From a virus: a DNA stretch of 64,000 bases. A program made the translations under genes and the position numbers. Every line of letters starts with the position of its first letter. The stretch's first letter is position 1. Positions 11,427 through 64,000 of this stretch are shown here, in pieces. Below the pieces are notes generated by a model that saw only the letters and a list, made by a program, of their open reading frames with translations, did not search any database and was not told the origin of the DNA. The DNA lies in the IMG/VR virus record IMGVR_UViG_3300042482_000285, one strand, 5' to 3'.

Positions 11427-11954
11427 ATGATATACCTTCCACAAAATCCATGCTGTACAACGATTCCAGTTGTTACCTGCGGATGTGATCCTTGTAGTAC
11501 GCCCCTTACACCAACTAACAATGTTACATACAGCGGACCTAATTTATCTTGTACATTAATCGCAACATATGACACAGCAACCGTGGCTTTCCAAAAGATT
11601 GACACTCAAATCTGTAGTCTTAAACAACAGATCTACAATCTTCAGGTGGCCTTAGGTAATTGCTGTCCAACCACTACAACAACATCTACTTCTACAAGTT
11701 CGACAACAACAACCACAACAACCATCGCTTGTCCTTCTTGTTTGTTCTATTCTGTGACTAATTCAACGTTGTCACCTGTTAGTATATCCTACTACCAGTG
11801 TGGAGGAACTCTTGTAAACACTTCTGTAGCGGGTCCTAGCATCATCTATGTATGTGCTTGCGCAGGAACATTAGTTGTGCCTCCTGTACCAGGTGTGTCA
11901 TCAGCTAATCTTGGGGCATGTCCTACAACAACCACTACAACAACTGTAGGGTAA
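11427..11954 (+). CDS. Cys-rich, poly-Thr protein (175 aa)
   Basis: CCTTIPVVTCGCDPC N-terminus; two poly-Thr/Ser tracts (TTTTSTSTSSTTTTTTT; TTTTTTTVG). Confidence 0.5.
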   Translation: MIYLPQNPCCTTIPVVTCGCDPCSTPLTPTNNVTYSGPNLSCTLIATYDTATVAFQKIDTQICSLKQQIYNLQVALGNCCPTTTTTSTSTSSTTTTTTTIACPSCLFYSVTNSTLSPVSISYYQCGGTLVNTSVAGPSIIYVCACAGTLVVPPVPGVSSANLGACPTTTTTTTVG

Positions 11955-21208: not shown

Positions 21209-21811
21209 ATGACAGTATTAATAACATTAACAACAGCTGGGACAGACACAGGTCCTTTCAACCTCTACTCGAATGTGGATGGTTATGTTTCAGCATTTGA
21301 AACAGGTGTGTCTAAAGCTGCACTTGTATCAGGTTATTCATCTGCACTTGTTCCTAATGGTACAGCAACCATAAGAATAAAGTCTACGGGCACTTGTGTA
21401 AACTACATAGATGTTACAGTGGTTACAACTACTACCACCACATCAAGCACAACATCTACGTCTAGTACCACAACAACCACGTCTAGTACTACACCACCTA
21501 CTGAGCTATTTGTTTATGCAAAATATATAAATGCTGCATCTCCTGGTGATTTACAATTTAGTATAAACTCAGGACCAAACTTCAACGCTGGTGCTATAGC
21601 AACATCATCTTGTAATTATATGTTTACAATAAGTGGAATCACTGCAGGAGATAGCATTTCGTTTACTGACTCAAACAGTCAGGCAATTGCAGGAAGCACA
21701 TCTGTTTGTCCTTCAGGACCTGGTGGATTTGGCTGTACGTACAACTACTCTGTATTAGTGTCTGGTCCACAAACTGCATACATTTCTGTTGACGGAACTA
21801 CCGCTTGTTAA
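21209..21811 (+). CDS. Hypothetical protein (200 aa) with a paralogous N-terminal domain and a poly-Thr linker
   Basis: The N-terminus TAGTDTGPFNLYSNVDGYVSAFETGVSKAALVSGYS...STGTC parallels the N-terminus of ORF 21823. Linker TTTTTTSSTTSTSSTTTTTSSTTPP. Confidence 0.5.
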   Translation: MTVLITLTTAGTDTGPFNLYSNVDGYVSAFETGVSKAALVSGYSSALVPNGTATIRIKSTGTCVNYIDVTVVTTTTTTSSTTSTSSTTTTTSSTTPPTELFVYAKYINAASPGDLQFSINSGPNFNAGAIATSSCNYMFTISGITAGDSISFTDSNSQAIAGSTSVCPSGPGGFGCTYNYSVLVSGPQTAYISVDGTTAC

Positions 21812-45905: not shown

Positions 45906-46301
45906 ATGCGTACCGCTGCAATTTGCCCAACATGTGCTGTTTTTGAGAATGCTTTGTGCATCCTCTATAACGGTGAATATTTGCCCAATATTGACGTAAA
46001 CCCCCTAGACTCTCTAGAGGTGGCATTGGAAAAGATAAATGACAATCTAGTTCCTGTAACAGGATCTGGTGCTCCTACAGCTGGAGCCATCTATCTTGGA
46101 CAACTTTACGTGAGAACTTCTGTATCTCCAAACCTGTATTTTGCTAAGTCAGTGGGTACAGGTGCCTTGGATTGGAGGATTCTTCTTTCTATTCCTTACA
46201 CAGGAGCCCCTGAGTATGCTGACAATGCAGCTGCTATTGCTGGTGGTTTAACAAATGGTCAAGTTTACCGTACAGGTGACGTGTTGAAAATCGTACATTA
46301 A
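45906..46301 (+). CDS. Small fibre-associated protein (131 aa) sharing the N-terminal Cys/ALEKI adapter motif
   Basis: CPTCAVFENALCILYNGEYLPNIDVNPLDSLEVALEKINDNL parallels residues ~113-160 of the giant fibre (CPITLNATCVFYEGPNLIYTKINTNDNLQTALEKIEAAI). Confidence 0.5.
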   Translation: MRTAAICPTCAVFENALCILYNGEYLPNIDVNPLDSLEVALEKINDNLVPVTGSGAPTAGAIYLGQLYVRTSVSPNLYFAKSVGTGALDWRILLSIPYTGAPEYADNAAAIAGGLTNGQVYRTGDVLKIVH

Positions 46302-46309
46302 TCTAAGAC

Positions 46310-52300: not shown

Positions 52301-55300
52301 TCAGGTGGTTGGTGTAACGTTACATCAGGTTGTCAAGCGGGTGTTTTGAGTGGATGTGGTAATACAGCATCAGGATATAGAGCAGTTGCTGTTGGTGGCG
52401 GTTCAAATATATCTTCAAATAGTTGGTCAACAGTAGGTGGAGGTAGAAATAACACAGCTTCAGGTTGCATGTCCTTTATAGGTGGTGGCTGTGGAAACAC
52501 TGTTTCGGGTGGTTATGCTTCTTCTCTTTTAGGTGGATGTGGTAACACAGCATCGGGAACAAGGTCTACCGTAGGTGGTGGAATGTTGAATACAGTAACA
52601 GGAGCATCAGGAACAATAGCAGGTGGAGAATATAACTGTATTTGTAGTGCAGGCATATTTGGAATCATATCAGGTGGATATTGTAGCATAGTTTCAGGAT
52701 GTTCTGCATCAATATTAGGTGGTAGAGCTAATTTAGCATCAGGAGATTGTTCAACAGTGGGTGGCGGTCAAGCAAACTGTGCAACAGGTGCTTTTTCAGC
52801 AATAGTGGGAGGAGACCAACATGCTGCCACAGCTTCAAGAGCATTTATAGGTGGTGGTTATGACAATACCGTAAGTAACGGTTATGGAGCTATAACAGGA
52901 GGTTATCAAAACAATGCTTCTTACATGGCTTTTGTAGGTGGAGGTAGAGGAAGCACAGCATCAGGAAACTATTCAACAGTAGCAGGGGGACAGTCTAACA
53001 CTGCTTCAGGAACTGTATCAACAGTTGGTGGAGGTGCAGGGCATACAGCTTCAGGATATCGTTCTGTTATCAGTGGTGGACACGCAAATTATGCTACAGC
53101 ATCTTGTTCCGCAGTAGGAGGTGGATATAACAACATTTCTTCAGGAGGATTTGCTTTTGTTGGTGCAGGTACAGGTAACACCTCTTCAAGTTCAGCAACA
53201 TTTATTGGAGGTGGTTATTATAATGTTGCAAACTGTGGATATGCTTCAGTGGCAGGAGGACAACAGAACACAGCAAGTGGAAGATATTCATTTGCAGGTG
53301 GTGGTCTTTGCAACCTTTCCAATGGTGATATGTCAACTATTGGTGGAGGTTCATGGAATAAAATAATTAGTTCAATAGCTACTTGTTGTGCAACAGGAGC
53401 TACTATTGCAGGCGGTGTAGGTAACAATACATGTGGTGGAACATTTAATAACTATGGTGTTCCAACTGTAAACCCAACAGTTGTATCAGCAGGTATTTAT
53501 TCTACAATAGGAGGTGGTTTTCAGAATAGGGCAGTGGGAGAATACTCTGTAGTTTCAGGCGGTATTTTTAATGTTGCAAACACAATATATTCATTTGTTG
53601 GTGGTGGGTATGGACACCTTGCTTCAGGTCAAGCTGCAATGATAGGTGGAGGTCGCTCCCATACAACATCTAATACTTATGCTACAGTACTAAGTGGATA
53701 TAACAGCACTGCAACGGGTTACGCTTCAACAATTTCAGGAGGTTATCAAAACATTGCTTCGGGTACTGATGCTGCAATATCAGGTGGTCGTGCTAATACA
53801 GCAACAGCCTTAGCAGCTTATGTTGGAGGAGGAAGATATAATGATGCAACAAATAATGTAGCCACTATAGCAGGTGGATATGATAACACAGCTTCAGGTG
53901 GATACTCAACTGTAGGTGGTGGATTAGGTAACTGTGCTACAGGATGTATATCTGCTGTAGTGGGTGGTAGACAAAGTTGTGCTACAGGTTGTTATGCTTT
54001 TGCAGGAGGTGGTTACAATAGTAAAGCTACAGCTTTTGCAACTACAACAAGCGGTGGATATGGAAACTTAGCTTCAGGAAATTCATCAACAGTATCAGGT
54101 GGTAGAATAAATACAGCTTCTAATGGTTATGCTACAGTTGCGGGAGGTTATCAAAACACTGCGAGTGGTGCTTATGCTTTTGTAGGTGCAGGTAGTATAA
54201 GTTCAGCAGGTGGTGACTGTGCTGTAATGGTAGGTGGTAAAGCAAATGCCGCAAGTGGTAATATATCATTTCTTGGTGGAGGATGTACAAACACCGCATC
54301 GGGACAAAATTCAGTTGTTGTTGGGGGATGTAATAACACATCAAGTGGTAATACATCAAGTATTTTAGGAGGTAGAGGTAACTCTACGTCTACTGCTTGT
54401 AATAGTATAAGCGGTGGATATGGTAATATAATTACAGCTTCAACAGGTCGTTCTTCAATTGTTGGTGGTAGTTCTAACTGTATAGGAGGTTCAGGTCTTG
54501 CATTTATTGGAGGAGGTAATACAAACACTATATCAGGTAGTTATTATGGAACTATAGCAGGTGGTGTAGGAAACACTACCTCAGCTTGGGCAAACTTTAT
54601 TGGAGCAGGTACATTCAATGTCGTTTCAGGAGGTTGTGGTGCAGTTGCAGGTGGTAATGGGAACACTGCTTCGGGGGGAGCATCTGCTATAGGTGGTGGT
54701 AGAGGTAATACGGCTTCAGGCACTTATTCTAAAGTCGGAGGAGGATGTTCAAATACTGCATCAGCTTCAAGGTCAACAGTAGTAGGTGGATTCCAAAATA
54801 CTGCATCATTTTATGCTTCATTTGTTGGAGGAGGTAGTTTTAACACAGCAAGTTGCTATTGTTCTTTTGTTGGTGCAGGTAATGGTAACGTAGCTTCAGG
54901 TAATGGTTCTGCGGTTGTAGGAGGTCAATCAAATTCTGCATCCAATCTAAATTCATTTGTAGGTGGAGGTAGAGCAAACTGCGCTTATGGAATTTGTTCA
55001 ACAGTTGGAGGAGGTTATAATAATAGGGCAAACCTATACAGCACTGCTGCGGGAGGTCTAAGTAATAATGCTACAGGTACTACTTCAACCGTAAGTGGTG
55101 GTTATAGTAACACAGCAAGTGGTACATACGATGCTTCTATTGGAGGTGGTGCATCGAATAGTGCAAGTGGAAATAAGTCAAGAGTAGGAGGTGGACAATC
55201 TAACGGTGCTACGGGTACAGCTTCTTTTGTAGGAGGTGGTTGTGCTAACACTGCGTCAGGCTATCGTTCAACAGTAAGTGGTGGTTTATCTAATGTAGCT

Positions 55301-56482
55301 TCAGGAGATAGAGCAACGGTAGGTGGTGGTGGTGCAAACTGTGCTACAAATACAGGAGATACTATTTCAGGTGGTATTAATAGTAGAGCAGGTGGTGCTT
55401 ATGGTACAGTTTCAGGTGGTTACAATAATAGTGCTACAGGATATATGGCTGTTATTGGTGGTGGTTGTATAAACTCATCAACATCAAACGCATCAACAGT
55501 TAGTGGAGGTCAGCAAAATTCAGCATCAGGTGCATGTTCCACTGTGGGTGGTGGTATTACAAATAGTGCATCTGGTACAAAATCTACCATTGCAGGTGGT
55601 CAAACAAACACTGCATCAGGATATAACTCATTTATCGGAGGTGGATATGCTAACCAAGCAACACAAACATATAGCTTTGTTGGTGGTGGAGACGAAAATA
55701 TTATTTCATCAGGTGCAAGAGGTGTAATTAGTGGTGGTCAAGGTAATAGAATATGTGGTACATCATCAGGATGTAATACAATTGGTGGTGGATATTTAAA
55801 CTGTATCACTACAGGATTTGTAAATACAATTGGTGGTGGTTATAACAATAGAATAGTAGGTGGCTCTTACCACGTCATAGCAGGTGGTTATAGTAACCAA
55901 ATATCATCAAATACAGAATCAGGTATATTAACAGGTGGTGCTAATACAGTATCAGGTACATACTCAGTAGTAGTTGGTGGTCAAGCAAACACAGCATCAG
56001 GGATATGCTCAGGGGTGTTAGGAGGTAGAAGTAACACAGCTTCAGGAAATCATTCTTCAGTACTTGGTGGATGCGGTAATGTAATATCAGGAAATTGTTC
56101 AGGTGGTGGAGGTGTAGGAATATCAGGAACTTGCTCATCTACTTTTTATTGGAATAACTTTTGTGCAACGTCTTGTATGTGGGCAGTTGCATATTTTGAA
56201 TCTTCTGACGAGCGTTTGAAGGATATTCATTGCACTGTAGGATCTTGTGACTCCATCAATCCTATCTATTTCAAATGGAAAGAAGGTGACGCAAGTGTTA
56301 TTAACATAGGATATTCTGCACAGAACGTGAAGGAAGTGCTTCCTCATACAATCAGAACAGATGAGAAGGGCTACTATAACGTAGACTACCATCAGGTGCA
56401 CATCTATAAAATAACTAAACTTGAGGAACGCATCACACAGCTTGAGGATATAATCAAAAAACTATCATCATGTCTTGGGTAG
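46310..56482 (+). CDS. Giant tail fibre (3390 aa): N-terminal adapter, two collagen-like GXY tracts, Hep_Hag/YadA-like beta-roll repeat array, C-terminal S74 intramolecular chaperone domain
   Basis: Two tracts of (G-T/S-S/T/A)n triplets. About 160 copies of a 14-15-aa repeat S-x-V-G-G-G-x-x-N-T-A-S-G-x-x. C-terminal ...YFESSDERLKDIH... matches the S-D-x-x-x-K Ser-Lys dyad of endosialidase-type intramolecular chaperone (peptidase S74) domains. Confidence 0.8.
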   Translation: MNVLPNILQYGSSGTSGTSGESQTSDYVNNFPVYIDPVVPVEPPPSELSSSQPSFLSKLYGRTLVQETPIITSEPLIYVAAPDPVDPADNQSFMSKLFANANNNTAFTSSPVVCAANPCPITLNATCVFYEGPNLIYTKINTNDNLQTALEKIEAAIADELAGSSGTSGTSGTSGTSGTAGTSGTTGTSGTSGTSATAGTSGTSGSSGTSGTTGTSGTSGTDGSGGTSGTSGTSGTSGTSGTAGTSGTSGTTGTSGTSGTDGSGGTSGTSGTSGTSGTAGTSGTSGTTGTSGTSGTTGTSGTSGTHGTSGTTGTSGTSGTTGTSGTSGTTGTSGTSGTSATSGTSGTSGTDGTGGTSGTSGTSATSGTSGTTGTSGSSGTSGTSGTSGTDGSGGTSGTSGTSGTDGTSATSGTSGSSGTSGTSATSGTTGTSGTSGTDGTGGTSGTSGTSATSGSSGSSGTDGTGGTSGTSGTSATSGTSGTTGTSGSSGTTGTSGTSGTAGTSGTDGSAGTSGTSATSGTSGTSATSGTSGTSGTTGTSGSSGLSGDRFATTSSTTYTLGGVGSSGTITVGTGLAYTVGQSIIVAYDANNHVEAEVTSYNPATGVLSFTVFRLTGSGTYSSWQVNLDGATGGDGSSGSSGTSGTSATAGTSGTTGTSGSSGTSATSGSSGTTGTSGTDGTSGTSGTTGTSGSSGSSGSSGSSGSSGTSATSGTSGTSATDGTGGTSGTSGSSGSSGSAGTSGTAGSPGTSGTSGSSGTAGSSGTTGTSGTSGTTGTSGTSGVSGTSGTSGTNGTGGTSGTSGSSGTSGSSGTAGSSGTSGTSGTAGTNGSPGTSGTSGSSGSSGTSGTTGTSGTSGSSGSSGINVGSSAVIVLGAGACSSVRCGVSNSATGGYTGNLAGTSNTMSGCCYNVIVGGFNSTASGTYYAFIGNGSTNTASGSVSFIGTGGSNIASADYAFIGNGAGNTASGSFATIVGGTVNTASGTCSFIGGGFCNTASGTHDVVVGGLYNRATSSAQSFIGGGCYNYISTGVWNTITGGICNCITAGGYGFIGGGYRNCLINSATESAVVVGGTNTVSASYSGILSGALNSVSGARSSVSGGCQVTASGAFSHVGGGCLNTASGTTAGVLSGRGNAAGGNWSSVSGGYNNSAGGNESHVGGGNANSASGCMSLVGAGFGNTASGLRSGIGSGQCNTASGNYSFVGGGVSNLACGVYSTVTGGIVNEARSTGAVAGGYANTASNRYSAAHGGLSNVAQGISSVIAGGQSNYVCNSTSGCLAYGAVVTGGVGNNTTGGTWSLASCAFTVAPTPCNVGQYSFIGGGFQNRAGGNYNSVVGGFCNSTGTSGYTAIAGGFCNTASANYNFIGAGQNNCIISTGGMSILVGGYLNTVSSTYSFLGGGRSNLVSGACSVIVGGKSNTASGYISAIGGGQSNITSGSFTFVGGGNGVCATSCLATAVGGANNRASGARAFVGGGSANTSSGYISVVVGGDSNTSNDRYGVISGGAVNTASNTYATVSGGLSNTASASRGTVAGGTGNTASGYAAFVVGQNNTASGNRATISGGRNNTSSSTYSTVSGGYRNRATQYATTVSGGYGNYSCVTQGTVGGGICNNLCSSVSASCGAGATIAGGVGNNTTGGTFNPATGQFSVAPTAICNAGQFSFIGGGFSNVATGAYSVLSGGQCNTASGYRSFVGSGYQTVALGCHSVAVGGLFNCASNCAVVVGGCVNTASGAYSFIGGGRTHTASGTWSTISGGYGNLASGQISVVAGGYGSSATGCRAATLGGQSNGASGAWATAGGGISNVASGESSVVSGGDSNTASGIRAAIGGGLANTATQCVSTVAGGDYNDATANRAFIGGGYNNTASSSYTTVSGGYQNTASATRATVAGGQFNFATGSQSIVGGGICNCATTSNSHIGGGLRNCVVGSMEASTISGGYGNIVCGSGCEATIGGGRGNRTVGWWTFVGGGVGNVASAESSISGGALNTASGYRSSVSGGWCNVTSGCQAGVLSGCGNTASGYRAVAVGGGSNISSNSWSTVGGGRNNTASGCMSFIGGGCGNTVSGGYASSLLGGCGNTASGTRSTVGGGMLNTVTGASGTIAGGEYNCICSAGIFGIISGGYCSIVSGCSASILGGRANLASGDCSTVGGGQANCATGAFSAIVGGDQHAATASRAFIGGGYDNTVSNGYGAITGGYQNNASYMAFVGGGRGSTASGNYSTVAGGQSNTASGTVSTVGGGAGHTASGYRSVISGGHANYATASCSAVGGGYNNISSGGFAFVGAGTGNTSSSSATFIGGGYYNVANCGYASVAGGQQNTASGRYSFAGGGLCNLSNGDMSTIGGGSWNKIISSIATCCATGATIAGGVGNNTCGGTFNNYGVPTVNPTVVSAGIYSTIGGGFQNRAVGEYSVVSGGIFNVANTIYSFVGGGYGHLASGQAAMIGGGRSHTTSNTYATVLSGYNSTATGYASTISGGYQNIASGTDAAISGGRANTATALAAYVGGGRYNDATNNVATIAGGYDNTASGGYSTVGGGLGNCATGCISAVVGGRQSCATGCYAFAGGGYNSKATAFATTTSGGYGNLASGNSSTVSGGRINTASNGYATVAGGYQNTASGAYAFVGAGSISSAGGDCAVMVGGKANAASGNISFLGGGCTNTASGQNSVVVGGCNNTSSGNTSSILGGRGNSTSTACNSISGGYGNIITASTGRSSIVGGSSNCIGGSGLAFIGGGNTNTISGSYYGTIAGGVGNTTSAWANFIGAGTFNVVSGGCGAVAGGNGNTASGGASAIGGGRGNTASGTYSKVGGGCSNTASASRSTVVGGFQNTASFYASFVGGGSFNTASCYCSFVGAGNGNVASGNGSAVVGGQSNSASNLNSFVGGGRANCAYGICSTVGGGYNNRANLYSTAAGGLSNNATGTTSTVSGGYSNTASGTYDASIGGGASNSASGNKSRVGGGQSNGATGTASFVGGGCANTASGYRSTVSGGLSNVASGDRATVGGGGANCATNTGDTISGGINSRAGGAYGTVSGGYNNSATGYMAVIGGGCINSSTSNASTVSGGQQNSASGACSTVGGGITNSASGTKSTIAGGQTNTASGYNSFIGGGYANQATQTYSFVGGGDENIISSGARGVISGGQGNRICGTSSGCNTIGGGYLNCITTGFVNTIGGGYNNRIVGGSYHVIAGGYSNQISSNTESGILTGGANTVSGTYSVVVGGQANTASGICSGVLGGRSNTASGNHSSVLGGCGNVISGNCSGGGGVGISGTCSSTFYWNNFCATSCMWAVAYFESSDERLKDIHCTVGSCDSINPIYFKWKEGDASVINIGYSAQNVKEVLPHTIRTDEKGYYNVDYHQVHIYKITKLEERITQLEDIIKKLSSCLG
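46796..47950 (+). repeat. Collagen-like Gly-X-Y tract 1 (~128 triplets), about 9-nt periodic DNA
   Basis: Uninterrupted G-[TSA]-[STAG] triplets (GTSGTSGTAGTSGTTG...). Nucleotide repeat unit ggtac(a/t)tc(t/a)gg(a/t)ac. Confidence 0.85.
48201..48900 (+). repeat. Collagen-like Gly-X-Y tract 2 (~78 triplets)
   Basis: GDGSSGSSGTSGTSATAGTSG...SSGSSG, separated from tract 1 by a roughly 85-aa globular insert. Confidence 0.85.
48901..56110 (+). repeat. Ser-rich 14-15-aa beta-roll (Hep_Hag/YadA-head-like) repeat array, about 2400 aa
   Basis: Periodic GG(G)xxNTASGxxSxV units, many containing Cys (GGGFCNTASG, GGICNCITAGG); no stop for 7.2 kb. Confidence 0.7.
56201..56482 (+). other. C-terminal intramolecular chaperone / auto-proteolysis domain (peptidase S74-like), predicted to be cleaved off
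   Basis: SSDERLKDI at nt 56201-56227. Hydrophobic/charged alternation and a terminal coiled coil (ITKLEERITQLEDIIKKL), as in K1F endosialidase, T5 pb1 and phi29 gp12 C-termini. Confidence 0.6.
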
Positions 56483-57292: not shown

Positions 57293-57667
57293 ATGGCAAA
57301 TTCTTGGAACACTCTTCACATTTTCGGTTTTGGAACTGTGCAAGCAATCTCTGACACACAGAACGTACAGGCTCCTATATCAGCTTTTCAGGCTGAAGTG
57401 GATGCTGTAGTGAATGATGTATGGAACAACAAACCTGCAGGATATACAGGTCCTAAAACTTTCCATGCTATCAACAACTTTGATGGTCTTTTCTCTGACT
57501 GGCTTCCTAATGAACCTAACGTAGAATCATTCAGAGTTCAGGCAGCTGACTTAGATCAATCTTTGTTAGATGCATTGGCAGATGGCGTACTTGCTTATGT
57601 TCCTCCTACCACAACGACCACTACCACTAAGAATATCACTACCACTAGCACAACAACGGCTAAATAA
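57293..57667 (+). CDS. Small protein (124 aa) with a C-terminal poly-Thr tail
   Basis: Ends PPTTTTTTTKNITTTSTTTAK; candidate TAACTTTG box 20 nt upstream (57266-57273). Confidence 0.45.
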   Translation: MANSWNTLHIFGFGTVQAISDTQNVQAPISAFQAEVDAVVNDVWNNKPAGYTGPKTFHAINNFDGLFSDWLPNEPNVESFRVQAADLDQSLLDALADGVLAYVPPTTTTTTTKNITTTSTTTAK

Positions 57668-57674
57668 ACATTAA

Positions 57675-57706
57675 TTTGGAAGTGTAATCTGTAGGTTTTA
57701 CCTTTG
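57675..57706 (+). promoter_or_regulatory. Candidate Bacteroidota-type promoter of the glycosylation operon (TTTG -N20- TACCTTTG)
   Basis: TTTG at 57675-57678 and TACCTTTG at 57699-57706, a perfect match to TTTG-N19-21-TAnnTTTG. It lies 15 nt upstream of the ATG at 57721 and is embedded in an imperfect hairpin GTAGGTTTTA/TAAACCCTAC (57691-57718). Confidence 0.4.
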
Positions 57707-57720
57707 TATAAACCCTACAT

Positions 57721-58602
57721 ATGAACATTATATTCCAAATCAATGGTGGTATAGGAAAGTGCATACTGGCAACATCTGTATGTGAAGCTATCAAGGCGCA
57801 ACATCCTGATAGTCAATTAATTGTAATGAGCGGTTACCCAGAGGTGTTTTTAAACAACCCCTTTGTGGACCGCTCATTTGCATTTGGTCAAGCCCAATAC
57901 TTCTATCAAGACTTTATTGAGAACAAGGAGTTCAAGGTGCTTGCACACGATCCCTACCTAGAAACAGCACATCTATTGCAGAATGAACATTTGTCCAAAA
58001 CCTGGGCAGAGATGTTTAACATCAAGGCTCCTGAGGATGTCACACCAAAGATATACATCACAGAAAGAGAGAAAACATTCTTCTCTAGTAAGTTTAACTC
58101 TGATGCCCCCATCCTCCTTATACAAACTAATGGTGGTGCGCAGGGACAAGAGCTTAGATATTCATGGGCTAGGGATATTCCTACAAACATTGTACAGGCT
58201 GTTATAGAAGAGTTTAAGAACACACATAACATTGTACACATAAGGCGTGAGGATCAAATAGGATATGAATTTACCACTCCTGTTACAGATAACTTCAGAG
58301 CGCTAGCTGTTCTTGTATCTCTCAGTGACAAACGTTTGCTCATGGACAGCTTTGGTCAGCACACAGCTGCTGCTCTAAACAAACCTTCTACAGTGCTTTG
58401 GGTAGCTAACACACCTGTGGTGTTTGGATATGATGTACATGATAACATTCTAGCCAACCCATTTACCAAAAGACCTGAGCTTAAACATTCTTATTTTCAG
58501 AAGTTTGACATCTCTGGAAACCTATTGGAGTTTCCTTACAACAATGAGTCTGAGATGTTTGACGTTGATAAGGTGATTGCATCTATTAAAAACCAAAAAT
58601 AA
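57721..58602 (+). CDS. GT9-family (LPS heptosyltransferase-like) glycosyltransferase
   Basis: N-terminus IIFQINGGIGKCILATSVCEAIKAQHPDSQLIVMS resembles the GT9 opening (ILVIrlsslGDvilttP.l.alk..yP.a.i..l). C-terminal MDSFGQHTAAALNKPSTVLW resembles the GT9 GnDSGpmHLAaAlg.P.V.lfG motif. Confidence 0.6.
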   Translation: MNIIFQINGGIGKCILATSVCEAIKAQHPDSQLIVMSGYPEVFLNNPFVDRSFAFGQAQYFYQDFIENKEFKVLAHDPYLETAHLLQNEHLSKTWAEMFNIKAPEDVTPKIYITEREKTFFSSKFNSDAPILLIQTNGGAQGQELRYSWARDIPTNIVQAVIEEFKNTHNIVHIRREDQIGYEFTTPVTDNFRALAVLVSLSDKRLLMDSFGQHTAAALNKPSTVLWVANTPVVFGYDVHDNILANPFTKRPELKHSYFQKFDISGNLLEFPYNNESEMFDVDKVIASIKNQK

Positions 58603-58603
58603 T

Positions 58604-59422
58604 ATGGAGAAGATATTCTATCAGAGCTCACTTCCAAGAGCTGGGTCTACGTTATTGCAGAACATATTAGCACAGAACCCAGACGTATATGCTACACCTA
58701 CAAGTGGTGTGCTTGAGCTTGTGTTTGCAGCCAGGGCTAATTACACAGACTCTCCTGAGTTTCAAGCACAAGATCCAGAGGTAATGAAAACAGCTTTTCA
58801 AGCTTTCTGTAAACATGGCATGGACGCTTATTACAATGCTATTACAGATAAGAAGTATGTTGTTGATAAATCTCGTGGATGGGGTATACACTATGACTTC
58901 CTTAACTTTGTTCAACCTGATCCAAAGATCATATGCATGGTGAGAGACCTCAGAGATGTATTTGCTTCTATGGAAAACAACTATAGAAAGCATCCTGATA
59001 AGGCTAATGCTATTCTCAACTGGGCACAGATGACTGGAACAACAGTTCCTAAACGTATAGACATCTGGGCACAATCTCAACCTATTGGTCTTGCTATCGA
59101 GAGGTTGGGTGAGCTCTTTAGACTAGGATATGCAGACAAAATACTCTTTGTTAAGTTTGAAGACCTATGTCTCTATCCTGAGACAGAGATGACAAGGATA
59201 TATCAATACCTTGGCATCCCATATTTCAAGCACGACTTTGACAACATTGAGCAAGTGACTAAGGAAGATGATGAAGTGTATGGTCAGTTTGGTGACCACG
59301 TGATTAGAAAGAAACTTGAGCCTGTACAGTCTAGAGCTAAGCAGCTCCTTGGTAAGGATGTAACAGATTGGATTTACACAAACTACAAATGGTTCTTTGA
59401 TCAATTCAGATATAGCAAATGA
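58604..59422 (+). CDS. PAPS-dependent sulfotransferase
   Basis: 5'-PSB motif LPRAGSTLLQNIL (P-K/R-x-G-S/T-T). 3'-PB motif MVRDLRDVFASM (R-D/N-P/L-R-D...S). The ATG at 58604 directly follows the upstream stop, so the track start at 58577 was rejected. Confidence 0.7.
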   Translation: MEKIFYQSSLPRAGSTLLQNILAQNPDVYATPTSGVLELVFAARANYTDSPEFQAQDPEVMKTAFQAFCKHGMDAYYNAITDKKYVVDKSRGWGIHYDFLNFVQPDPKIICMVRDLRDVFASMENNYRKHPDKANAILNWAQMTGTTVPKRIDIWAQSQPIGLAIERLGELFRLGYADKILFVKFEDLCLYPETEMTRIYQYLGIPYFKHDFDNIEQVTKEDDEVYGQFGDHVIRKKLEPVQSRAKQLLGKDVTDWIYTNYKWFFDQFRYSK

Positions 59423-59847
59423 TTATAGTATTATTCGGACAGCCACACAGTGGTAAGACAACATTAGCAAACCAGTTTGCAGGTCATGTTAACATTGATG
59501 GAGACCAACTTAGAAAGATTTTTGAAAACAAAGACTACTCTAGGGAAGGAAGAATCAAGAACCTAAATAGGGCTAGTGACATTGCTCACTATCTCAACAG
59601 TGTAGGTAAGAGTGTAACCCTATCTCTAGTCTATCCTTATAAAGAAGCTAGAGACTACCTGAACAGTTTAACACCTAATGTAAGATGGGTATATTTACAC
59701 TATGATGGTGAGAGAGGAAGAGAAGGATTCCATGTAGGAGATTTTGATAAACCTGGAGATGATGAACAGGTTATGCAACTTAACACCTCTGCTACGTCTG
59801 TAAAAGAATGTTATACCACAATATACAATTGGGCATATGGTGAATAA
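59419..59847 (+). CDS. cysC: Adenylylsulfate (APS) kinase-like P-loop kinase
   Basis: P-loop LFGQPHSGKTTLA followed by NIDGDQLRKIF...REGRIKNLNRASDIAHYLNSVGKSVTLSLVYPYKEAR. This parallels the CysC pattern LDGDNVRHGL...DRKENIRRVGEVAKL..AG.VVL.AFISPhR.eR. Overlaps the upstream stop (ATGA). Confidence 0.65.
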   Translation: MIIVLFGQPHSGKTTLANQFAGHVNIDGDQLRKIFENKDYSREGRIKNLNRASDIAHYLNSVGKSVTLSLVYPYKEARDYLNSLTPNVRWVYLHYDGERGREGFHVGDFDKPGDDEQVMQLNTSATSVKECYTTIYNWAYGE

Positions 59848-60202
59848 CGTTCATGAGTGTCCTGAGTGTAAGATAGCCAAGGGTTGGGGACATGAGCTTA
59901 TTATTCATAACTCTGAAAAGTATTGTGGTAAGCTACTAGTATTCAAGGCTGGATGTAAGTTCTCTATGCATTATCACCTACTCAAACAGGAGACATGGTA
60001 TGTAAACAAAGGAACATTCATCTACCGATGGATAGATACTAATCAGGGGACAGAGCTTTCCACTCGTTTGGCTGTTGGAGATGTTGTTACACAATACCCA
60101 GGACAACCACATCAGCTTGAGGCTCTAAAGGATGGGGAGATATTTGAGGTGAGCACACAACACTTTGACTCAGACAGCTATAGAATATGGAAGGGAGATT
60201 AA
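59837..60202 (+). CDS. Cupin-fold small protein (121 aa); candidate sugar-phosphate isomerase or epimerase
   Basis: Two-motif cupin signature: G-x5-H-x-H (WGHELIIH...MHYH) and G...Q.P..H.LE. 11-nt overlap with the upstream gene. Confidence 0.45.
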   Translation: MVNNVHECPECKIAKGWGHELIIHNSEKYCGKLLVFKAGCKFSMHYHLLKQETWYVNKGTFIYRWIDTNQGTELSTRLAVGDVVTQYPGQPHQLEALKDGEIFEVSTQHFDSDSYRIWKGD

Positions 60203-60489
60203 CAATATATGTAGACATTGATGGCACAATATGCCACACAGATGGTAATAAATACAGTGAATGTGTTCCCATCCATGAGAACATAGCTAAGATAAATAAA
60301 CTGTATGATGAGGGACATGAGATAGTATATTACACAGCTAGAGGTCAAAGGTCAGATGTTGATTATACAAAGCTGACAACCAAACAGCTGTACGATTGGA
60401 ACTGTAAATACTCAAAGGTGGTGATGAATCATAAACCTGCCTACGACCTAATGATATGTGATAAAACAAAAAGAATAGAAGAGATATGA
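60187..60489 (+). CDS. Minimal HAD-like phosphatase (100 aa); candidate heptose-1,7-bisphosphate phosphatase (GmhB role)
   Basis: HAD motif I IYVDIDGTI (DxDGT). Later YYTARGQ (motif II Thr), HKPAYDLMICDKT (Lys and Asp of motifs III/IV). Unusually short. Overlaps the upstream gene by 16 nt. Confidence 0.4.
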   Translation: MEGRLTIYVDIDGTICHTDGNKYSECVPIHENIAKINKLYDEGHEIVYYTARGQRSDVDYTKLTTKQLYDWNCKYSKVVMNHKPAYDLMICDKTKRIEEI

Positions 60490-60887
60490 GAATATGGGTG
60501 AATGGAGCTTTTGACATCCTGCATATAGGACACATTAAGCTTCTTAAACATGCAGCAGCTATGGGCTACCTTAGAGTGGGGATAGATACAGACAAGAGAA
60601 TAAAAGAGCTAAAGGGTCCCAACAGACCCTTTAATTGTTTTAGCACAAGAAAGGAAATGTTAGAATCTCTACGCTTTGTAGACGAGGTGGTGGGGTTTGG
60701 TGGTGAGCAGGAGCTCATAGATGAGATTAAACTTTATCAACCAGATGTGATGGTGATTGGATCTGACTACAGGAATAAGAGGATTGTTGGATCGGAATTT
60801 ATAAACAAAATTGTTTACTTTGACAGGGTGGAGAATATGTCCACCACATCAATACTAGAATATGAAAAAGATAGTGGTAATAGGTGA
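60486..60887 (+). CDS. hldC: D-glycero-beta-D-manno-heptose 1-phosphate adenylyltransferase (HldE domain II / HldC-like cytidylyltransferase fold)
   Basis: WVNGAFDILHIGHIKLLKHAAAMG...LRVGIDTDKRIKELKGPNRP...EVVGFGGEQELIDEIKLYQPDVMVIGSDY matches the RfaE-II consensus (vftNGcFDilHaGHv.yL..Ar.lGd.LiVgvNsD.Sv.rlKG..RPv...VD.Vv.F.e.TP..Li....PdvlVKGgDY). ATGA overlap with the upstream gene. Confidence 0.8.
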   Translation: MRIWVNGAFDILHIGHIKLLKHAAAMGYLRVGIDTDKRIKELKGPNRPFNCFSTRKEMLESLRFVDEVVGFGGEQELIDEIKLYQPDVMVIGSDYRNKRIVGSEFINKIVYFDRVENMSTTSILEYEKDSGNR

Positions 60888-61599
60888 GCTCTGCCATGAT
60901 GTGTTTGTATATGGGGAATGCAAAAGGCTGAGCCCAGAAGCACCCGTTCCTGTATTCAATCCTATACATAGTGTAGAGAATCTAGGAATGGCTGGGAATG
61001 TTGTGGCTAACATCAACACTATTGATTCTAACATAGGAATATCTTTCTATCACAGCCTAGAGAAGATAACCAAGACTAGGTATGTAGATAAGAAAACCAA
61101 CCATCTATTCCTTAGGGTGGATGATGAACCACGTGTGAACAGAATACATATATCAGAGACACTTATTTCTGAGATAAAGGAAGCAGATGCTGTAGTGGTT
61201 AGTGATTACAACAAAGGGTTTCTGTCTGAAGATGACCTGTATACAATATCAAAACTTGCAAGATTTGCAATAGTTGACACTAAGAAGAGGATGAATCCCA
61301 TCCACCTATCACATTTCAACTTCATCAAAATAAATGAACATGAGGCTAATCAGGGAGTTGCTGATGAACTTAAAGAAAAGACTATTGTAACACTTGGTCC
61401 AAAAGGAGCAATGTATATGGATACATTATACCCATCTCCACACCCTAAGGAAACTATAGATGTGTCAGGAGCTGGTGATACATTCCTAGCAGCATTTGTC
61501 ACTAAGTATTTGGAGACAGAAGATGTTAATATTTCTATTACCTTTGCAAATAAGATGAGCGCTATTGTTGTATCAAAAAGAGGCGTAGCTACACCATGA
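60862..61599 (+). CDS. hldA: PfkB-family sugar kinase, HldE domain I-like (D-glycero-beta-D-manno-heptose 7-phosphate kinase)
   Basis: The N-terminus KKIVVIGELCHDVFVYGECKRLSPEAPVPVF parallels HldE (ilVvGDvmLDrY..G...RiSPEAPVPVv). PfkB anion-hole/catalytic motif DVSGAGDTFLAAF. 26-nt overlap with hldC. Confidence 0.7.
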   Translation: MKKIVVIGELCHDVFVYGECKRLSPEAPVPVFNPIHSVENLGMAGNVVANINTIDSNIGISFYHSLEKITKTRYVDKKTNHLFLRVDDEPRVNRIHISETLISEIKEADAVVVSDYNKGFLSEDDLYTISKLARFAIVDTKKRMNPIHLSHFNFIKINEHEANQGVADELKEKTIVTLGPKGAMYMDTLYPSPHPKETIDVSGAGDTFLAAFVTKYLETEDVNISITFANKMSAIVVSKRGVATP

Positions 61600-62456
61600 A
61601 AGTATTGATTACAGGAACTAAAGGATTTATAGGAGGCAATCTCTGGAAGCATTTTGATGACCCGTTGGTGATTAATGAAAACTTTTTTCTTGAACCAGAA
61701 TGGCCTGGGCTTTTACATAAAGCATTGAACAACCATTCACCAGATGTTGTGTTCCACGTAGGCGCTTGTTCCAACACTCTAGAGACAGATGTTAATTACA
61801 TCATGAATCTAAACTTCCAATGTACAAAGCTACTGATGGATTGGTGCAAACGTGGTGGTAAACCTATGATATATTCATCCTCTGCAGCATCCTATGGAAC
61901 AAATGGACAATACCCATCCAACCTATATGGCTGGAGTAAGTATGTAGCTGAGCAATATGTAATTAGCAACGGTGGTGTAGCACTTAGATACTTCAATGTA
62001 TATGGACCAGGAGAAGAGCACAAGGGTAACATGGCTTCTATGGTCTACCAGATGTTTAAAGCAGGAGAAGCTAAGCTATTTCCTGGTGAGCCTCAACGTG
62101 ATTTCATATATGTGGATGATGTTGTACTTGCCAACCTACATGCATTGGCACACTATGATGTGCTATCAGGAAAGAAATATGATGTAGGACTTGGAGAAGC
62201 ACACACCTTTGAGTATATTGCAAATGTATTAGAGATTCCATACACATACCATGACTCATCAGCTATACCAGAAGGATATCAATTCTACACATGTAGCAAT
62301 CCTAGAAACTGGATGCCTGGTTGGGCACCAGAATATTCAATAAAAACAACACTACAATTATGCAAAACGTATTGGCAAAAGCTGCTCACAAATCAGGACA
62401 ATGGGCAATGTTCATCGGAAGATGGCAACCGTGGCACGAAGGACACAGATGGTTAA
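61596..62456 (+). CDS. hldD: ADP-L-glycero-D-manno-heptose 6-epimerase
   Basis: Rossmann [22 protein letters not shown]...[21 protein letters not shown] (YxxxK) and [22 protein letters not shown]...[16 protein letters not shown] align near-identically in pattern with E. coli HldD (HEGACSST...[43 protein letters not shown]...LFEGSENFKRDFVYVGDV). Confidence 0.85.
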   Translation: [286 protein letters not shown]

Positions 62457-62746
62457 TTGACCAAGCATTTAACGAGGATAAGAAAGTGCTCCTCTGTATA
62501 AGAGATGTACCTGTGGATGAGAAGAATCCTTGGTCTGCTATTGAGGTGATGATGAACCTCACTAACGAATTAATAGACTTAATTGAAGAAGGAAGACTTA
62601 AAATTATTATTATACCTGATATTGAATCTATCAATATTGGTAGGGGTATTGGTTATGATGTTATAGAACATGTACCGCCTCAAGATATACATGATATATC
62701 TGCTACAAAGATTCGTGAACAAATGAAAGCTGAGGGTAAGTTATGA
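62360..62746 (+). CDS. NadM/NMNAT-like (HxGH) nucleotidyltransferase, about 128 aa
   Basis: AMFIGRWQPWHEGHRWLIDQAF...KVLLCI matches the archaeal-type NMNAT / cytidylyltransferase signature GRFQPFHKGH followed by EIIIGIGSA. The track ORF begins at 62321 inside hldD. Internal ATGs at 62360 or 62408 are more plausible starts. Confidence 0.45.
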   Translation: MQNVLAKAAHKSGQWAMFIGRWQPWHEGHRWLIDQAFNEDKKVLLCIRDVPVDEKNPWSAIEVMMNLTNELIDLIEEGRLKIIIIPDIESINIGRGIGYDVIEHVPPQDIHDISATKIREQMKAEGKL

Positions 62747-62967
62747 TGGTAGAAAGGAAACGACATATAGCTAAGACTATTAGTTATCGTCTCATCAGTA
62801 CACTCATTGGTGTGCTCACTATGTTTATTGTAACAGGATCTATGAAAGCAGGAGCTGCATTTGGTGTAGCTGAGCTGTTGTGGAAGCCTGTACAATACTA
62901 CATCCACGAACGTATTTGGTATAAGTGGATTAGATATGGCTTAAAAGGGCAAAAACAACCTGACTAG
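62743..62967 (+). CDS. DUF2061-like small membrane protein (74 aa)
   Basis: RKRHIAKTISYRLISTLIGVLTMFIVTGSMKAGAAFGVAELLWKPVQYYIHERIWYKW fits the DUF2061 pattern as I recall it (K.ISWR..GTL.TF.I...vTGS...a.......e...K.vlYYlHER.W). This family is often adjacent to or fused with APS kinase. The 3' end overlaps the convergent minus-strand gene by 38 nt. Confidence 0.4.
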   Translation: MMVERKRHIAKTISYRLISTLIGVLTMFIVTGSMKAGAAFGVAELLWKPVQYYIHERIWYKWIRYGLKGQKQPD

Positions 62968-63982
62968 CATCTATCTTCTGGTGGCATTCAAACTGTCTGT
63001 CTGTTCCCTTGTGTTCAGGACACCAGTCCCAATCTCCTGGATCAAACTTATATTCAGCTTTGTTCCAACATCCGTGGCATACATTCTTGTTGTCAATCCT
63101 AATGCATTGAAACTCATGGTCTGCTTCTGTGAAGTTGGAGATCATCACCACCTTCTTGTCAAGAGCCCAGGCTAACCAGCTAAGTCCACTAGACAGTCCT
63201 ATGAATATCTTACTGTGATGGATAATGTTCATGGTGTTCTCTATGGATGTATCCTCTATCTGCTCACAGTTGTCAAAAGGATTCTTCTCCTTAGATACAT
63301 TAATCACCTTGTATCCTTTCTCATGCAGGAAGTTTATCACTAGCTGCCATCCCTCTTTGGTCCAGAACTTACAACCAGTTGTAGAATTGGTGGCTATTGT
63401 AACATATTTACCATATAAATTGTTACCAGGAGTGAATGCAATTCTTGGTTTAAGTTCTTGAAACTCAAGACCTAAGATGTTGGTAGCTGCCTCTTGGAGC
63501 TTTACAGTGTTACACAAAGCTGGTTCCTTGTCAGGATTGTAAAACCAACCTATGTTATACATACCAAATATACCATCAGCCTTCTGACCAGGTTCAATAA
63601 ACTCAATCTCTGGGTAGACATCTTTGAACAAGAAGTTCTTAAACGTACTCACTATTACATGGCAGTTGTGCTTCTTCTTAAACTCAAGAACATATGGCAT
63701 CCATGCTATACTATCTCCTAGAGACTTGCTGTCAAATGCTATGTACACACGCTTACCTGTGTAGTCTAGGGTGTATTCGTAATAGGGCTCATCATCTTTC
63801 CATATCTTAATGGTCCACTTGGTAAACCACCTCCTGTTGAGCTTAATCCAATTCTGCACACCTATTGTGTTCCTATAGTGACACACACCTTCCTCATCAT
63901 GATATTCCACCCTGAACTTGCTCTTAGACCTTCCCTTGATTTCAAGAAACGGTTCTAGAATAAAGTTGTGATCAATTGTCAC
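62930..63982 (-). CDS. TibC/AAH-like autotransporter-adhesin-type protein O-heptosyltransferase (BAHT family), probably N-terminally incomplete at the window edge
   Basis: SLGDSIAWMPYVLEFKKKHNCHV parallels TibC TLGDLLGWFPYAERFQSLHKCRL. IGLSSGLSWLAWALDKKVVMISNFTEADHEF parallels IGLPSGLSWLAWATRIPVVLISGFSLPNSEF. CHGCWNKAEYKFDPGDWDWCPEHKGTDRQFECHQ parallels the TibC iron-finger CYGCWDD...FLWCPRHKNTDRQFEC (TibC sequence recalled from memory). It is the only credible minus-strand gene. The first in-window codon is GTG and the frame stays open to nt 64000. Confidence 0.8.
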   Translation of the reverse strand: MTIDHNFILEPFLEIKGRSKSKFRVEYHDEEGVCHYRNTIGVQNWIKLNRRWFTKWTIKIWKDDEPYYEYTLDYTGKRVYIAFDSKSLGDSIAWMPYVLEFKKKHNCHVIVSTFKNFLFKDVYPEIEFIEPGQKADGIFGMYNIGWFYNPDKEPALCNTVKLQEAATNILGLEFQELKPRIAFTPGNNLYGKYVTIATNSTTGCKFWTKEGWQLVINFLHEKGYKVINVSKEKNPFDNCEQIEDTSIENTMNIIHHSKIFIGLSSGLSWLAWALDKKVVMISNFTEADHEFQCIRIDNKNVCHGCWNKAEYKFDPGDWDWCPEHKGTDRQFECHQKIDASQVVFALLSHI

Positions 63983-64000
63983 ATGTTCGTTAGATTGTAC

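Follow-up and report, generated by a model that had tools for sequence, protein, structure and literature searches.

We analysed a stretch of viral DNA comprising positions 1-64000 of the IMG/VR record IMGVR_UViG_3300042482_000285 (64,000 nucleotides (nt); hereafter the window), with the focus on its final 6.3 kb, where a putative glycosylation gene cluster follows the gene of a giant phage fibre. The cluster consists of ten plus-strand genes at 57721-62967 (g1 to g10) and one convergent minus-strand gene (g11) that runs from 62930 to the window end, and it lies directly 3' of the fibre open reading frame (ORF) of 3390 amino acids (aa) and two small ORFs. The original prediction described overlapping plus-strand genes closed by a convergent gene, and this layout was recovered with ten instead of nine plus-strand genes. 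Neighbouring genes of the cluster overlap by 4-97 nt or are separated by 1-nt gaps. The starts of g2 (ATG at 58604) and g9 (ATG at 62360) were refined by the lengths of homologues; an alternative upstream TTG of g2 lies at 58577. The g9 gene begins 97 nt inside the 3' end of g8 (62360-62456), an overlap that is also found in a related viral locus (L008), and the 3' ends of g10 and g11 overlap by 38 nt (62930-62967). The features are collected in Table 1.

The product of g11 matched the NCBIfam model for autotransporter strand-loop-strand O-heptosyltransferases (TIGR04414) with 275.9 bits against a cut-off of 200, over model positions 26-368 of 374, and scored 30 bits or less on models for lipopolysaccharide (LPS) heptosyltransferases. 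It aligned over 300 residues with the protein O-heptosyltransferase TibC (PDB 4RAP; E = 5e-49), whose functional residues were defined by Yao et al. 2014 (PMC4358343). Residues D90, T201, K205 and W269 of g11 correspond to the catalytic base D110 and the donor-binding residues T226, K230 and W305 of TibC, and C302, C305, C321 and C333 correspond to the iron-finger cysteines C339, C342, C358 and C370. All of these residues were invariant in nine divergent phage domains of the same type. Furthermore, Pro300 of TibC enforces selectivity for ADP-D,D-heptose, and the related enzyme AAH, which accepts ADP-L,D-heptose, has a Ser there (PMC4358343). The Ser found at this position in g11 is AAH-like, which fits the presence of an HldD-like epimerase gene in the cluster. 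Judged by family membership, g11 is a true TibC/AAH-type protein O-heptosyltransferase (BAHT), as predicted; with its iron finger intact, it falls in the BAHT family and not in an LPS-core GT9 clade lacking the finger. There was no autotransporter gene near g11 in the window neighbourhood, where the neighbours are phage fibre genes.

The reading frame of g11 contains no in-frame stop before the window end, so the ORF is truncated there. In the closest relatives (91-82% identical) the g11 equivalent forms the C-terminal 350 residues of a 1139-aa protein, in which Pfam models located an S-adenosylmethionine (SAM)-dependent methyltransferase domain (~20-110), a glycosyltransferase (GT) domain of the GT4/GT1 type (~620-750) and the GT9/BAHT domain (~980-1080). 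Such fusions were mostly 1000-1300 aa long in the relatives, and other lineages had shorter GT4-BAHT forms of ~680 aa or stand-alone forms of ~390 aa. Comparison with these relatives indicates that the window BAHT is not the stand-alone TibC-like gene first proposed, but the C-terminal domain of a multidomain enzyme in which a methyltransferase, a middle domain and a GT4 domain precede the BAHT. For the middle domain (~aa 150-440 of L002), the PDB matches, to sulfurtransferases, were at chance level, and a GT-A/GT8-like DxD domain was considered and could not be supported. A similar protein occurs in Microcystis phage Mel-JY01 (L001, 4750-8430), where a 1226-aa 'methyltransferase FkbM' holds a GT4 domain and a C-terminal BAHT 40% identical to that of the window, near a 639-aa 'cytidylyltransferase like protein' and a possibly collagen-like region.

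Table 1. Features of the window, with positions in nt unless given as aa of the fibre.
Feature	Position	Strand	Remarks
g1, divergent GT9-fold (GT-B) glycosyltransferase, 293 aa	57721-58602	+	predicted fold
g2, 3'-phosphoadenosine 5'-phosphosulfate (PAPS)-dependent sulfotransferase, 272 aa	58604-59422	+	PF13469 4e-21
g3, short P-loop kinase resembling adenosine 5'-phosphosulfate (APS) kinase, 142 aa	59419-59847	+	PF01583 4.7e-9; PRK05541 2e-12
g4, metal-binding cupin, 121 aa	59837-60202	+	candidate sedoheptulose-7-P isomerase (GmhA analogue)
g5, minimal haloacid dehalogenase (HAD) phosphatase, 100 aa	60187-60489	+	candidate GmhB analogue; DIDGT (DxDxT) motif
g6, HldC-like heptose-1-P adenylyltransferase (HxGH), 133 aa	60486-60887	+	phrog_7878 2.5e-39
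g7, HldA-like PfkB heptose-7-P kinase (shortened), 245 aa	60862-61599	+	phrog_8133 9e-73
g8, HldD-like ADP-heptose 6-epimerase, 286 aa	61596-62456	+	PDB and TIGR02197
g9, NadM-like HxGH nucleotidyltransferase, 128 aa	62360-62746	+	weak NMNAT-family matches
g10, DUF2061 predicted membrane protein, 74 aa	62743-62967	+	PF09834 2.6e-14
g11, TibC/AAH-type protein O-heptosyltransferase (BAHT) domain	62930-64000	-	C-terminal part of an ORF open at the window end
Fibre, 3390 aa, candidate glycan acceptor	46310-56482	+	Pfam Collagen 1e-52
Fibre, N-terminal anchor	aa 1-145
Fibre, collagen-like (G-T/S-S/T)n runs	aa ~163-865, nt ~46796-48904		flank a small globular domain, aa 546-640
Fibre, 15-residue repeat GGxxNTASGxxSxVG	aa 881-3290, nt 48950-56179		about 160 copies
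Fibre, C-terminal domain	aa 3291-3390
Cys-rich protein, 258 aa	56470-57246	+	immediately after the fibre
124-aa protein with poly-Thr tail (PPTTTTTTKNITTTSTTTAK)	57293-57667	+	conserved in L008, L033, L077 and L078
Bacteroidota-type promoter-like box TTTG-N20-TACCTTTG	57675-57706	+	exact match; ends 14 nt before the g1 ATG
1871-aa structural-module protein	15574-21189	+	four pure poly-Thr/Ser linkers, up to 53 residues
Portal, 860 aa	95-2677		phrog_6547, 6e-98
Major head protein	4647-6200		after the portal

At least 151 IMG/VR contigs encode a BAHT relative, of which the best 80 (56-91% identical) were the loci compared. Ordinary bacterial BAHTs (from Bradyrhizobium, Trinickia, Lentisphaeria and others) were only 32-37% identical to the window BAHT. 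The best 'genomic' matches were short contigs of Bacteroidota metagenome-assembled genomes (MAGs), from Sediminibacterium (61%) and from Winogradskyella, Flavobacteriales and Saprospirales (36-40%), and these contigs look like phage fragments. The Sediminibacterium contig (L086; JBBAJX010000043.1, 8 kb, from a Chitinophagaceae MAG) encodes a 1131-aa fusion with a 61% identical BAHT next to small ORFs of phage type; the contig probably stems from a phage and hints weakly at the host group.

The BAHT gene was repeatedly found next to genes for Ser/Thr-rich fibres. In the crAss-like clade the fusion gene was convergent with or adjacent to the fibre block, with a variable cassette (g1-g10) inserted between them. 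The BAHT of a second lineage (L036, L047, L051 and L045, the last on a 326-kb contig) adjoins a ~1000-aa Pro/Thr-rich (PT-rich) protein with many TPTQTPT linkers, and in the huge phage LR756501 and the Flavobacteriales and Winogradskyella MAG contigs a BAHT (39-44% identical) lies beside collagen-like Ser/Thr-rich ORFs. In total, the fetched flank of 61 of the 80 loci encoded a protein of 250 aa or more that was collagen-like or rich in Ser/Thr, and most of the others have truncated flanks. When loci were fetched via the gene upstream of the fibre, a BAHT was present in all nine evaluable loci with Ser/Thr-rich collagen-like fibres; it was seen directly in six of them and is known for L173, L183 and L187 because these share their contigs with L002, L077 and L053, respectively. 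In contrast, none of the seven loci with ordinary fibres (Ser+Thr 0.12-0.23) had a BAHT within 10 kb. Hence, the proposed link between BAHT and fibre recurs as a genomic association in several phage lineages. The closest public relatives of the window were L170 and L171 (IMGVR_UViG_3300034095_000343 and 3300048693_000179), which were 96-98% identical in the gene 5' of the fibre and may contain the right-hand part of the genome that the window lacks.

The fibre showed the predicted anatomy, with Ser-rich repeats of 15-residue period. In the 2410-aa repeat block, the autocorrelation at lag 15 was 0.33 compared with a background of ~0.08, and 131 units were recovered. None of the YadA/Hep_Hag or NCBIfam target-repeat models matched this repeat. 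Its pattern (..GG..NTASG..S..) is similar to the acceptor peptides of AIDA-I and TibA given in PMC4358343. Related contigs encode fibres with the same N- and C-terminal modules. A C-terminal chaperone domain was considered and rejected, with a Peptidase_S74 match (0.0028) below the cut-off and an empty PDB sequence search. The 15-residue repeat was common to only L008, L033, L054, L077 and L078; the fibres of most other loci shared only the N-terminal anchor, collagen-like (G-T/S-S/T)n segments or the C-terminal domain. Since the proteins encoded next to the BAHT are for the most part collagen-like (GTS)n or PT-rich and do not contain the repeat, the sequence comparison points to Ser/Thr-rich fibres of the virion as a class as the partner of the BAHT, and not in particular to the AIDA-like beta-roll repeat, which had been suggested as its specific acceptor. 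Poly-Thr/Ser linkers had likewise been anticipated in other proteins; pure linkers of this kind, mucin-like in appearance, were found in at least five (8099-9271, 11427-11954, 15574-21189, 21209-21811 and 57293-57667), which would be further candidates for O-glycosylation.

The genes g4 to g8 form a heptose module. HldA-, HldC- and HldD-like enzymes, a HAD phosphatase and a GT9-like transferase had been assigned to the cluster from the letters alone, and these assignments held in family, PDB and fold searches. For g8, the best family was TIGR02197 (2.5e-49; 168 bits, cut-off 274.6), and the top four PDB matches were all ADP-L-glycero-D-manno-heptose 6-epimerases (2e-29 to 7e-25), compared with 5e-13 for GalE. 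The g7 kinase matched TIGR02198 (7e-35; 120.6 bits, cut-off 345) and had HldA 4E84 as its best PDB match, with the SPEAPVPV motif in common, and is ~70-100 aa shorter than HldA. For g6 the best family was TIGR02199 (rfaE_dom_II; 3.5e-29; 101.5 bits, cut-off 181.5). The PDB result for g6 was ambiguous, as cytidylyltransferases (ECT, TagD) ranked above HldC 5X9Q. The small g5 protein had weak HAD matches, including the EcbF/BcbF capsule phosphatase family (1.6e-5), and matched phrog_1238 (8e-23). Because the scores lie below curated equivalog cut-offs, g5 to g8 are regarded as divergent members of their families.

A SIS-domain GmhA, the usual sedoheptulose-7-P isomerase, was not found in any ORF of the cluster with Pfam and NCBIfam models. 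The g4 cupin gave weak matches to Cupin_2, MannoseP_isomer and Lyx_isomer and a match to phrog_7851 (1e-36), and its metal ligands H45, H47, E52 and H92 were invariant. The PDB sequence search with g4 was empty; the fold search returned generic cupins (KdgF, oxalate decarboxylase), including D-lyxose/mannose isomerases at 23% identity. Throughout the related loci, the phage records, a 316-kb metagenomic scaffold and the marine virus AG-345-O18, the cupin was always found with heptose genes. We infer that g4 is the best candidate for the isomerase step in place of GmhA, because there are five genes for five steps, because the cupin is never separated from the others, and because the reaction shares its C1-C2 chemistry and manno configuration with mannose-6-P and lyxose isomerases.

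Across the 80 related viral loci the genes g4-g8 were gained or lost as a unit, and they were present only in L006, L007, L008 and L077. Outside these loci, the cupin and the kinase each had matches in 35 phage records, two sets of T4-like cyanophages and marine-virus contigs that overlap to a large extent. P-SSM2 (PSSM2_309-313) and S-CAM1 (SXBG_00216-220) carry these five genes in one uninterrupted run between annotated tail fibre genes, the 316-kb scaffold has the order cupin-HldC-HldA-HldD, and the module also occurs in AG-345-O18. This distribution overturns the pathway part of the suggestion that no phage with a full nucleotide-heptose pathway and a BAHT had been described, since the same module is annotated in these 35 records. 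The cyanophage modules are accompanied by a g1-like protein (PSSM2_307, E = 3e-10; SXBG_00222, E = 1e-5) and a Nol-like carbamoyltransferase, and no BAHT was found in the module-bearing T4-like cyanophages P-SSM2 and S-CAM1. In both phages (L084, P-SSM2 238199-240797; L085, S-CAM1 176046-178569) RefSeq and PHROG name the HAD protein 'phosphoheptose isomerase' and the cupin 'cysteine dioxygenase'. These annotations are probably wrong, and the cupin is the more plausible isomerase.

The remaining genes of the cluster comprise the g1 transferase, a sulfation module (g2, g3 and g9) and the small membrane protein g10. With g1, zero matches were obtained in Pfam (including PF01075), NCBIfam or PDB sequence searches, even with an 11-sequence profile. 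Its AlphaFold2 model (mean confidence score pLDDT 82.6) had as top Foldseek matches the GT9 structure 3TOV (1.5e-10, TM 0.68), followed by WaaF, WaaC and TibC, so that g1 has a GT9 fold according to the model. Among 1438 homologues of g1, a few are named ADP-heptose:LPS heptosyltransferase by the Joint Genome Institute (JGI), and g1 relatives adjoin heptose modules of cyanophages and marine viruses.

The g2 sulfotransferase scored well above the cut-offs of PF13469 (76.7 bits compared with 27) and PF00685 (51.8 compared with 22), matched phrog_27463 (1e-42), and contains a 5'-phosphosulfate-binding (5'-PSB) motif, PRAGST, and a 3'-phosphate-binding (3'-PB) motif, RDLRDVFAS. Its best NCBIfam match was the Nod-factor sulfotransferase NoeE. 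The g3 kinase reached 36.9 bits on PF01583 (cut-off 21.1) over only model positions 4-105 of 152, scored below the cut-off on all NCBIfam equivalogs, and has a P-loop, a DGD motif and the motif SREGRIKNLNR. It matches the N-terminal half of phrog_10255, of which g9 matches the C-terminal half. In phages of Xylella and Stenotrophomonas, the fusion proteins of phrog_10255 carry the annotation adenylylsulfate kinase. Because both halves are fused in this family, the comparison suggests that g3 and g9 work together (a Rosetta-stone link). Kinase-nucleotidyltransferase fusions of phrog_10255 were seen in siphophages of Xylella, Stenotrophomonas and Xanthomonas, which suggests that pairs of the g3 and g9 types are widespread in phages. 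A canonical ATP sulfurylase was rejected for g9, as its motif spacing (GRWQPWHEGH) by eye fits a NadM-type NMNAT and not Sat; on the analogy of the g3-g9 fusion family, a role as ATP-sulfurylase analogue in PAPS synthesis is speculative. The g10 gene co-occurs with g9 and g3 in relatives. Moreover, ~15 related loci combine g2, g3, g9, g10 and g1, frequently in the absence of heptose genes, and in the marine virus contigs AG-345-O18 and AG-345-E08 g2-like sulfotransferases lie 1-7 kb from heptose modules.

The window as a whole is a phage structural region with nearly all genes on the plus strand. Its portal shares ~26% identity with those of crAss-like phages that infect Bacteroides, Flavobacterium and Cellulophaga. 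At the nucleotide level, a search with the region gave zero matches among 50,697 phage records. The promoter-like box that had been noted before the cluster was an exact match to the consensus TTTG-N20-TAnnTTTG. This pattern occurred once in the whole window compared with 2.5 matches expected by chance, so the box before g1 is positionally plausible and statistically unremarkable. The shorter TAnnTTTG was not enriched either (63 copies in the window, 59 expected), and further copies lie shortly 5' of the starts at 26878, 45906 and 57293.

Just 5' of the fibre lie two giant ORFs, at 29529-41141 (3870 aa) and 41141-45829 (1562 aa), the latter with only a weak exonuclease-like PHROG match (phrog_298, 9e-8). 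Both the GC content (0.43-0.49) and the GC skew (0.23-0.29) are raised at 46000-56000, in the fibre gene, which also overlaps long antisense or alternative-frame ORFs such as a 433-aa minus-strand ORF at 46717-48018. These features are attributed to repetitive Gly/Ser/Thr codons and not to extra genes. The Cys-rich protein after the fibre was without a match in the family searches. Its N-terminal ~70-110 residues were conserved right behind fibre genes in 20 related loci and the remainder varied; it may be a fibre tip or assembly factor.

Taken together, we read the island as a tail-fibre-adjacent virion glycosylation cluster in a distant member of the crAss-like phages that infects Bacteroidota. 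Self-glycosylation of virion fibres by phage-encoded enzymes is the best reading of the sequence data, and we consider it somewhat more probable than all other explanations together. It draws on the enzyme identities, on the domain fusion in relatives, and on the recurrent synteny and co-variation with Ser/Thr-rich fibres, all of which were established at the sequence level. In the proposed scheme, ADP-L-glycero-beta-D-manno-heptose would be made from sedoheptulose-7-P by the cupin g4 as putative isomerase, the HldA-type kinase g7, the HAD phosphatase g5, the HldC-type adenylyltransferase g6 and the HldD-type epimerase g8; where the module is absent, the host would supply the heptose donor. 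The putative APS kinase g3 and its presumed partner g9 would supply PAPS for the sulfotransferase g2. The BAHT domain would then O-heptosylate Ser, and perhaps Thr, of Ser/Thr-rich structural proteins of the phage in the cytoplasm, before or during assembly, with the 3390-aa fibre as main acceptor candidate and the poly-Thr/Ser-linker proteins as further candidates. BAHTs act in the cytoplasm, on proteins before export (PMC4358343), and phage structural proteins are cytoplasmic as well, so that this site of modification fits virion proteins. The fused GT4 domain and g1 may extend the glycan, and the methyltransferase and the sulfotransferase may decorate it. A glycan of this composition might act on adsorption, particle stability or shielding.

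Several observations weigh against fibre heptosylation. The acceptors of BAHTs known to us are Ser residues in beta-helical autotransporter passengers, and we know of no collagen-like or poly-Thr acceptors. The co-variation of BAHT and fibre is confounded by phylogeny, and the fibre association is partly inherited synteny. The beta-hairpin thumb, which carries the hydrophobic tip F265 and V266 in TibC and is needed for the dodecamer, is ~10 residues shorter in g11. Furthermore, the ~790 extra N-terminal residues of the fusion may be incompatible with the TibC ring, and recognition of the acceptor may therefore differ. In g1, the N-terminal motif GGIGK, with a Lys that is invariant in the family, takes the place of the canonical LGD of GT9 enzymes, so that g1 is without the usual catalytic Asp. 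The HldA-, HldC- and HldD-like proteins all scored below curated equivalog cut-offs, and the isomerase role of g4 comes from co-occurrence, with a fold search that was generic. Finally, the heptose module lies within 10 kb of the BAHT in 4 of the 80 related viral loci. Most BAHT relatives are thus without the module in this range, and they would take the donor from the host or use a different one; this count speaks against the earlier argument that the phage must bring its own pathway into a host without heptose.

In one variant of this reading, a glycan is placed on the fibre, but the BAHT either does not initiate it or acts without heptose. The O-glycan on Thr/Ser would then begin with the GT4 domain, the middle domain or g1, and heptose would be an optional branch. 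Besides the absence of the module from most BAHT-bearing relatives and the shortened thumb, this variant is favoured by the Thr that replaces the donor-binding R286 of TibC in g11 (ENTMN compared with ERVNL), and by the occurrence of the heptose module of cyanophages and marine viruses with g1-like proteins and without a BAHT. TibC and AAH, moreover, modify Ser and not Thr (PMC4358343), yet many of the candidate linkers are Thr-dominated. However, neither the catalytic Asp nor the equivalents of T226, K230 and W305 vary, and the iron finger is preserved, which argues for a functional ADP-heptose-dependent BAHT, and hosts could supply ADP-heptose where the module is absent. We regard this variant as improbable. 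Remodelling of the host envelope deserves more weight, although it too is rather unlikely in our view. Here, the heptose, sulfation and transferase genes would modify LPS, capsule or surface proteins of the host and not the virion, and might thereby block superinfection, prevent progeny from re-adsorbing to lysing cells, or alter the receptor. GT9 enzymes classically act on the LPS core, and the fold of g1 matches WaaC and WaaF; the match of g2 to NoeE and the presence of a DUF2061 membrane protein point in the same direction, as do the natural substrates of BAHTs, which are bacterial surface adhesins (PMC4358343). Sullivan et al. 2005 read the homologous cyanophage clusters as LPS genes that alter the host surface (PMC1079782), which likewise counts against a role in the virion. 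Conversely, the BAHT family is protein-specific, without known glycolipid activity, the genes end the structural and fibre block and are convergent with it in many lineages, the presence of the BAHT tracks Ser/Thr-rich fibres, and the cyanophage modules also lie between tail-fibre genes. CrAss-like phages are not known to establish classical lysogeny, which also counts against host remodelling.

Heptose could, in principle, also be attached to hydroxymethylated cytosines of phage DNA as protection against restriction. A metagenomic phage cluster with a bifunctional HAD/APH protein, a cytidylyltransferase and a GT-B enzyme makes mono- and di-heptosyl-5-hydroxymethylcytosine (5hmC; bioRxiv 10.1101/2023.12.21.572611), and the present cluster likewise has HAD, nucleotidyltransferase and GT-B enzymes. 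However, the glycosyltransferases that make heptosyl-5hmC resemble T4 beta-GT and not GT9 or BAHT enzymes (bioRxiv 10.1101/2023.12.21.572611), and in the visible part of the genome there was no cytosine methyltransferase, TET/5mYOX or deoxycytidine monophosphate (dCMP) hydroxymethylase in or beside the cluster. Furthermore, g11 has a protein-recognising iron finger, sulfotransferase partners do not fit DNA modification, and the cluster sits in the fibre module. DNA hypermodification is therefore very unlikely. Fibre self-glycosylation remains the explanation that we prefer. A wider version of it, in which a large and hitherto unrecognised crAss-like clade on aquatic Bacteroidota and unrelated jumbo- and cyanophages all build mucin- or collagen-like fibres that are O-heptosylated by a BAHT with fused extending and methylating domains and sulfated with PAPS of phage origin, with the cupin as non-orthologous replacement of GmhA, is put forward tentatively and is more doubtful than the narrower claim. 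If it holds, the system would be the first in viruses to heptosylate proteins and would yield the first phage glycoprotein with sulfate, and the cupins would make up a new family of sedoheptulose-7-P isomerases.

The components of the cluster are all of known kinds, and its heptose module is already annotated in cyanophages. New, as judged from the genomic comparison, are the fusion of the BAHT to GT4 and methyltransferase domains and its systematic placement beside Ser/Thr-rich fibres, together with its combination with cassettes for heptose synthesis and sulfation, and the use of a cupin as presumed substitute for GmhA. Our literature search, which was incomplete in coverage, revealed no account of BAHTs encoded by phages, of heptosyltransferases in crAss-like phages or of collagen-like phage fibres that are glycosylated. 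If the proposed function is correct, protein O-heptosylation, so far a virulence trait of Gram-negative adhesins, would also be a viral strategy for receptor-binding fibres, and virion glycosylation, documented in few phages, would be a trait of an abundant group of environmental phages as well, given the number of contigs with a BAHT, the ~1400 homologues of g1 and the ~2600 homologues of the cupin. The 'LPS genes' of T4-like cyanophages would then be reinterpreted as fibre-glycosylation genes, with a cupin-type replacement of GmhA and possibly a non-canonical route to PAPS. A coat of sulfated heptoglycans on the fibres could influence the host range of the phage, the stability of its particles, their resistance to proteases and the way they stick to polysaccharide matrices in the sea or in fresh water.

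Among known systems, the bacterial BAHTs (TibC, AAH and BimC, with the substrates TibA, AIDA-I and Ag43) are closest to g11. They belong to the same family, with the same catalytic Asp, T/K/W residues and four-Cys iron finger, and AAH has the Ser at the selectivity position in common with g11. Their genes likewise lie beside those of very long, repetitive fibrous proteins rich in Gly, Ser, Thr and Asn, and modification is cytoplasmic, as proposed here. In contrast to them, g11 is phage-encoded and fused C-terminally to methyltransferase and GT4 domains, its neighbours are collagen-like, 15-residue-repeat or PT-rich phage fibres instead of autotransporters, its thumb is shorter and R286 is replaced, its identity to the bacterial enzymes is at most 37%, and it is described here from its sequence. 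The 'LPS' clusters of T4-like cyanophages (P-SSM2 PSSM2_307-313, S-CAM1 SXBG_00216-222) and the marine AG-345 contigs share the five-gene module at 30-49% identity, with an HldC-like protein, a 245-aa HldA-like protein, a ~100-aa HAD protein, a ~120-aa cupin and an HldD-like protein. They also have a g1-like GT9-fold gene nearby and sometimes a g2-like sulfotransferase, and lie between tail-fibre genes, much as the present cluster is fibre-adjacent. The cyanophage clusters differ in being without a BAHT and in carrying a Nol-like carbamoyltransferase, and their proposed function is alteration of the host LPS (PMC1079782).

Virions are glycosylated by virus-encoded enzymes in other settings as well. 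In mycobacteriophages the capsid and tail are modified, and in chlorovirus PBCV-1 the A064R protein, with two GT domains and a methyltransferase, acts on the capsid protein. The likeness lies in viral GT genes beside structural genes, in a multidomain enzyme that combines GT and methyltransferase domains, and in cytoplasmic, host-independent machinery. The enzyme families and sugars are different, however, since the present cluster has a predicted nucleotide-heptose pathway, PAPS synthesis and sulfation, a BAHT as putative initiator, and fibres instead of the capsid as presumed targets. A further parallel is BclA of the Bacillus exosporium, which forms O-glycosylated collagen-like filaments with GXT repeats that bear rhamnose and anthrose. 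BclA is bacterial and differs in its sugars and enzymes, and glycosylation of the (GTS)n segments of phages is proposed here. In both cases Thr or Ser occupies the X and Y positions of collagen-like triplets, and dedicated GT and sugar-biosynthesis genes lie adjacent to the gene of the filament.

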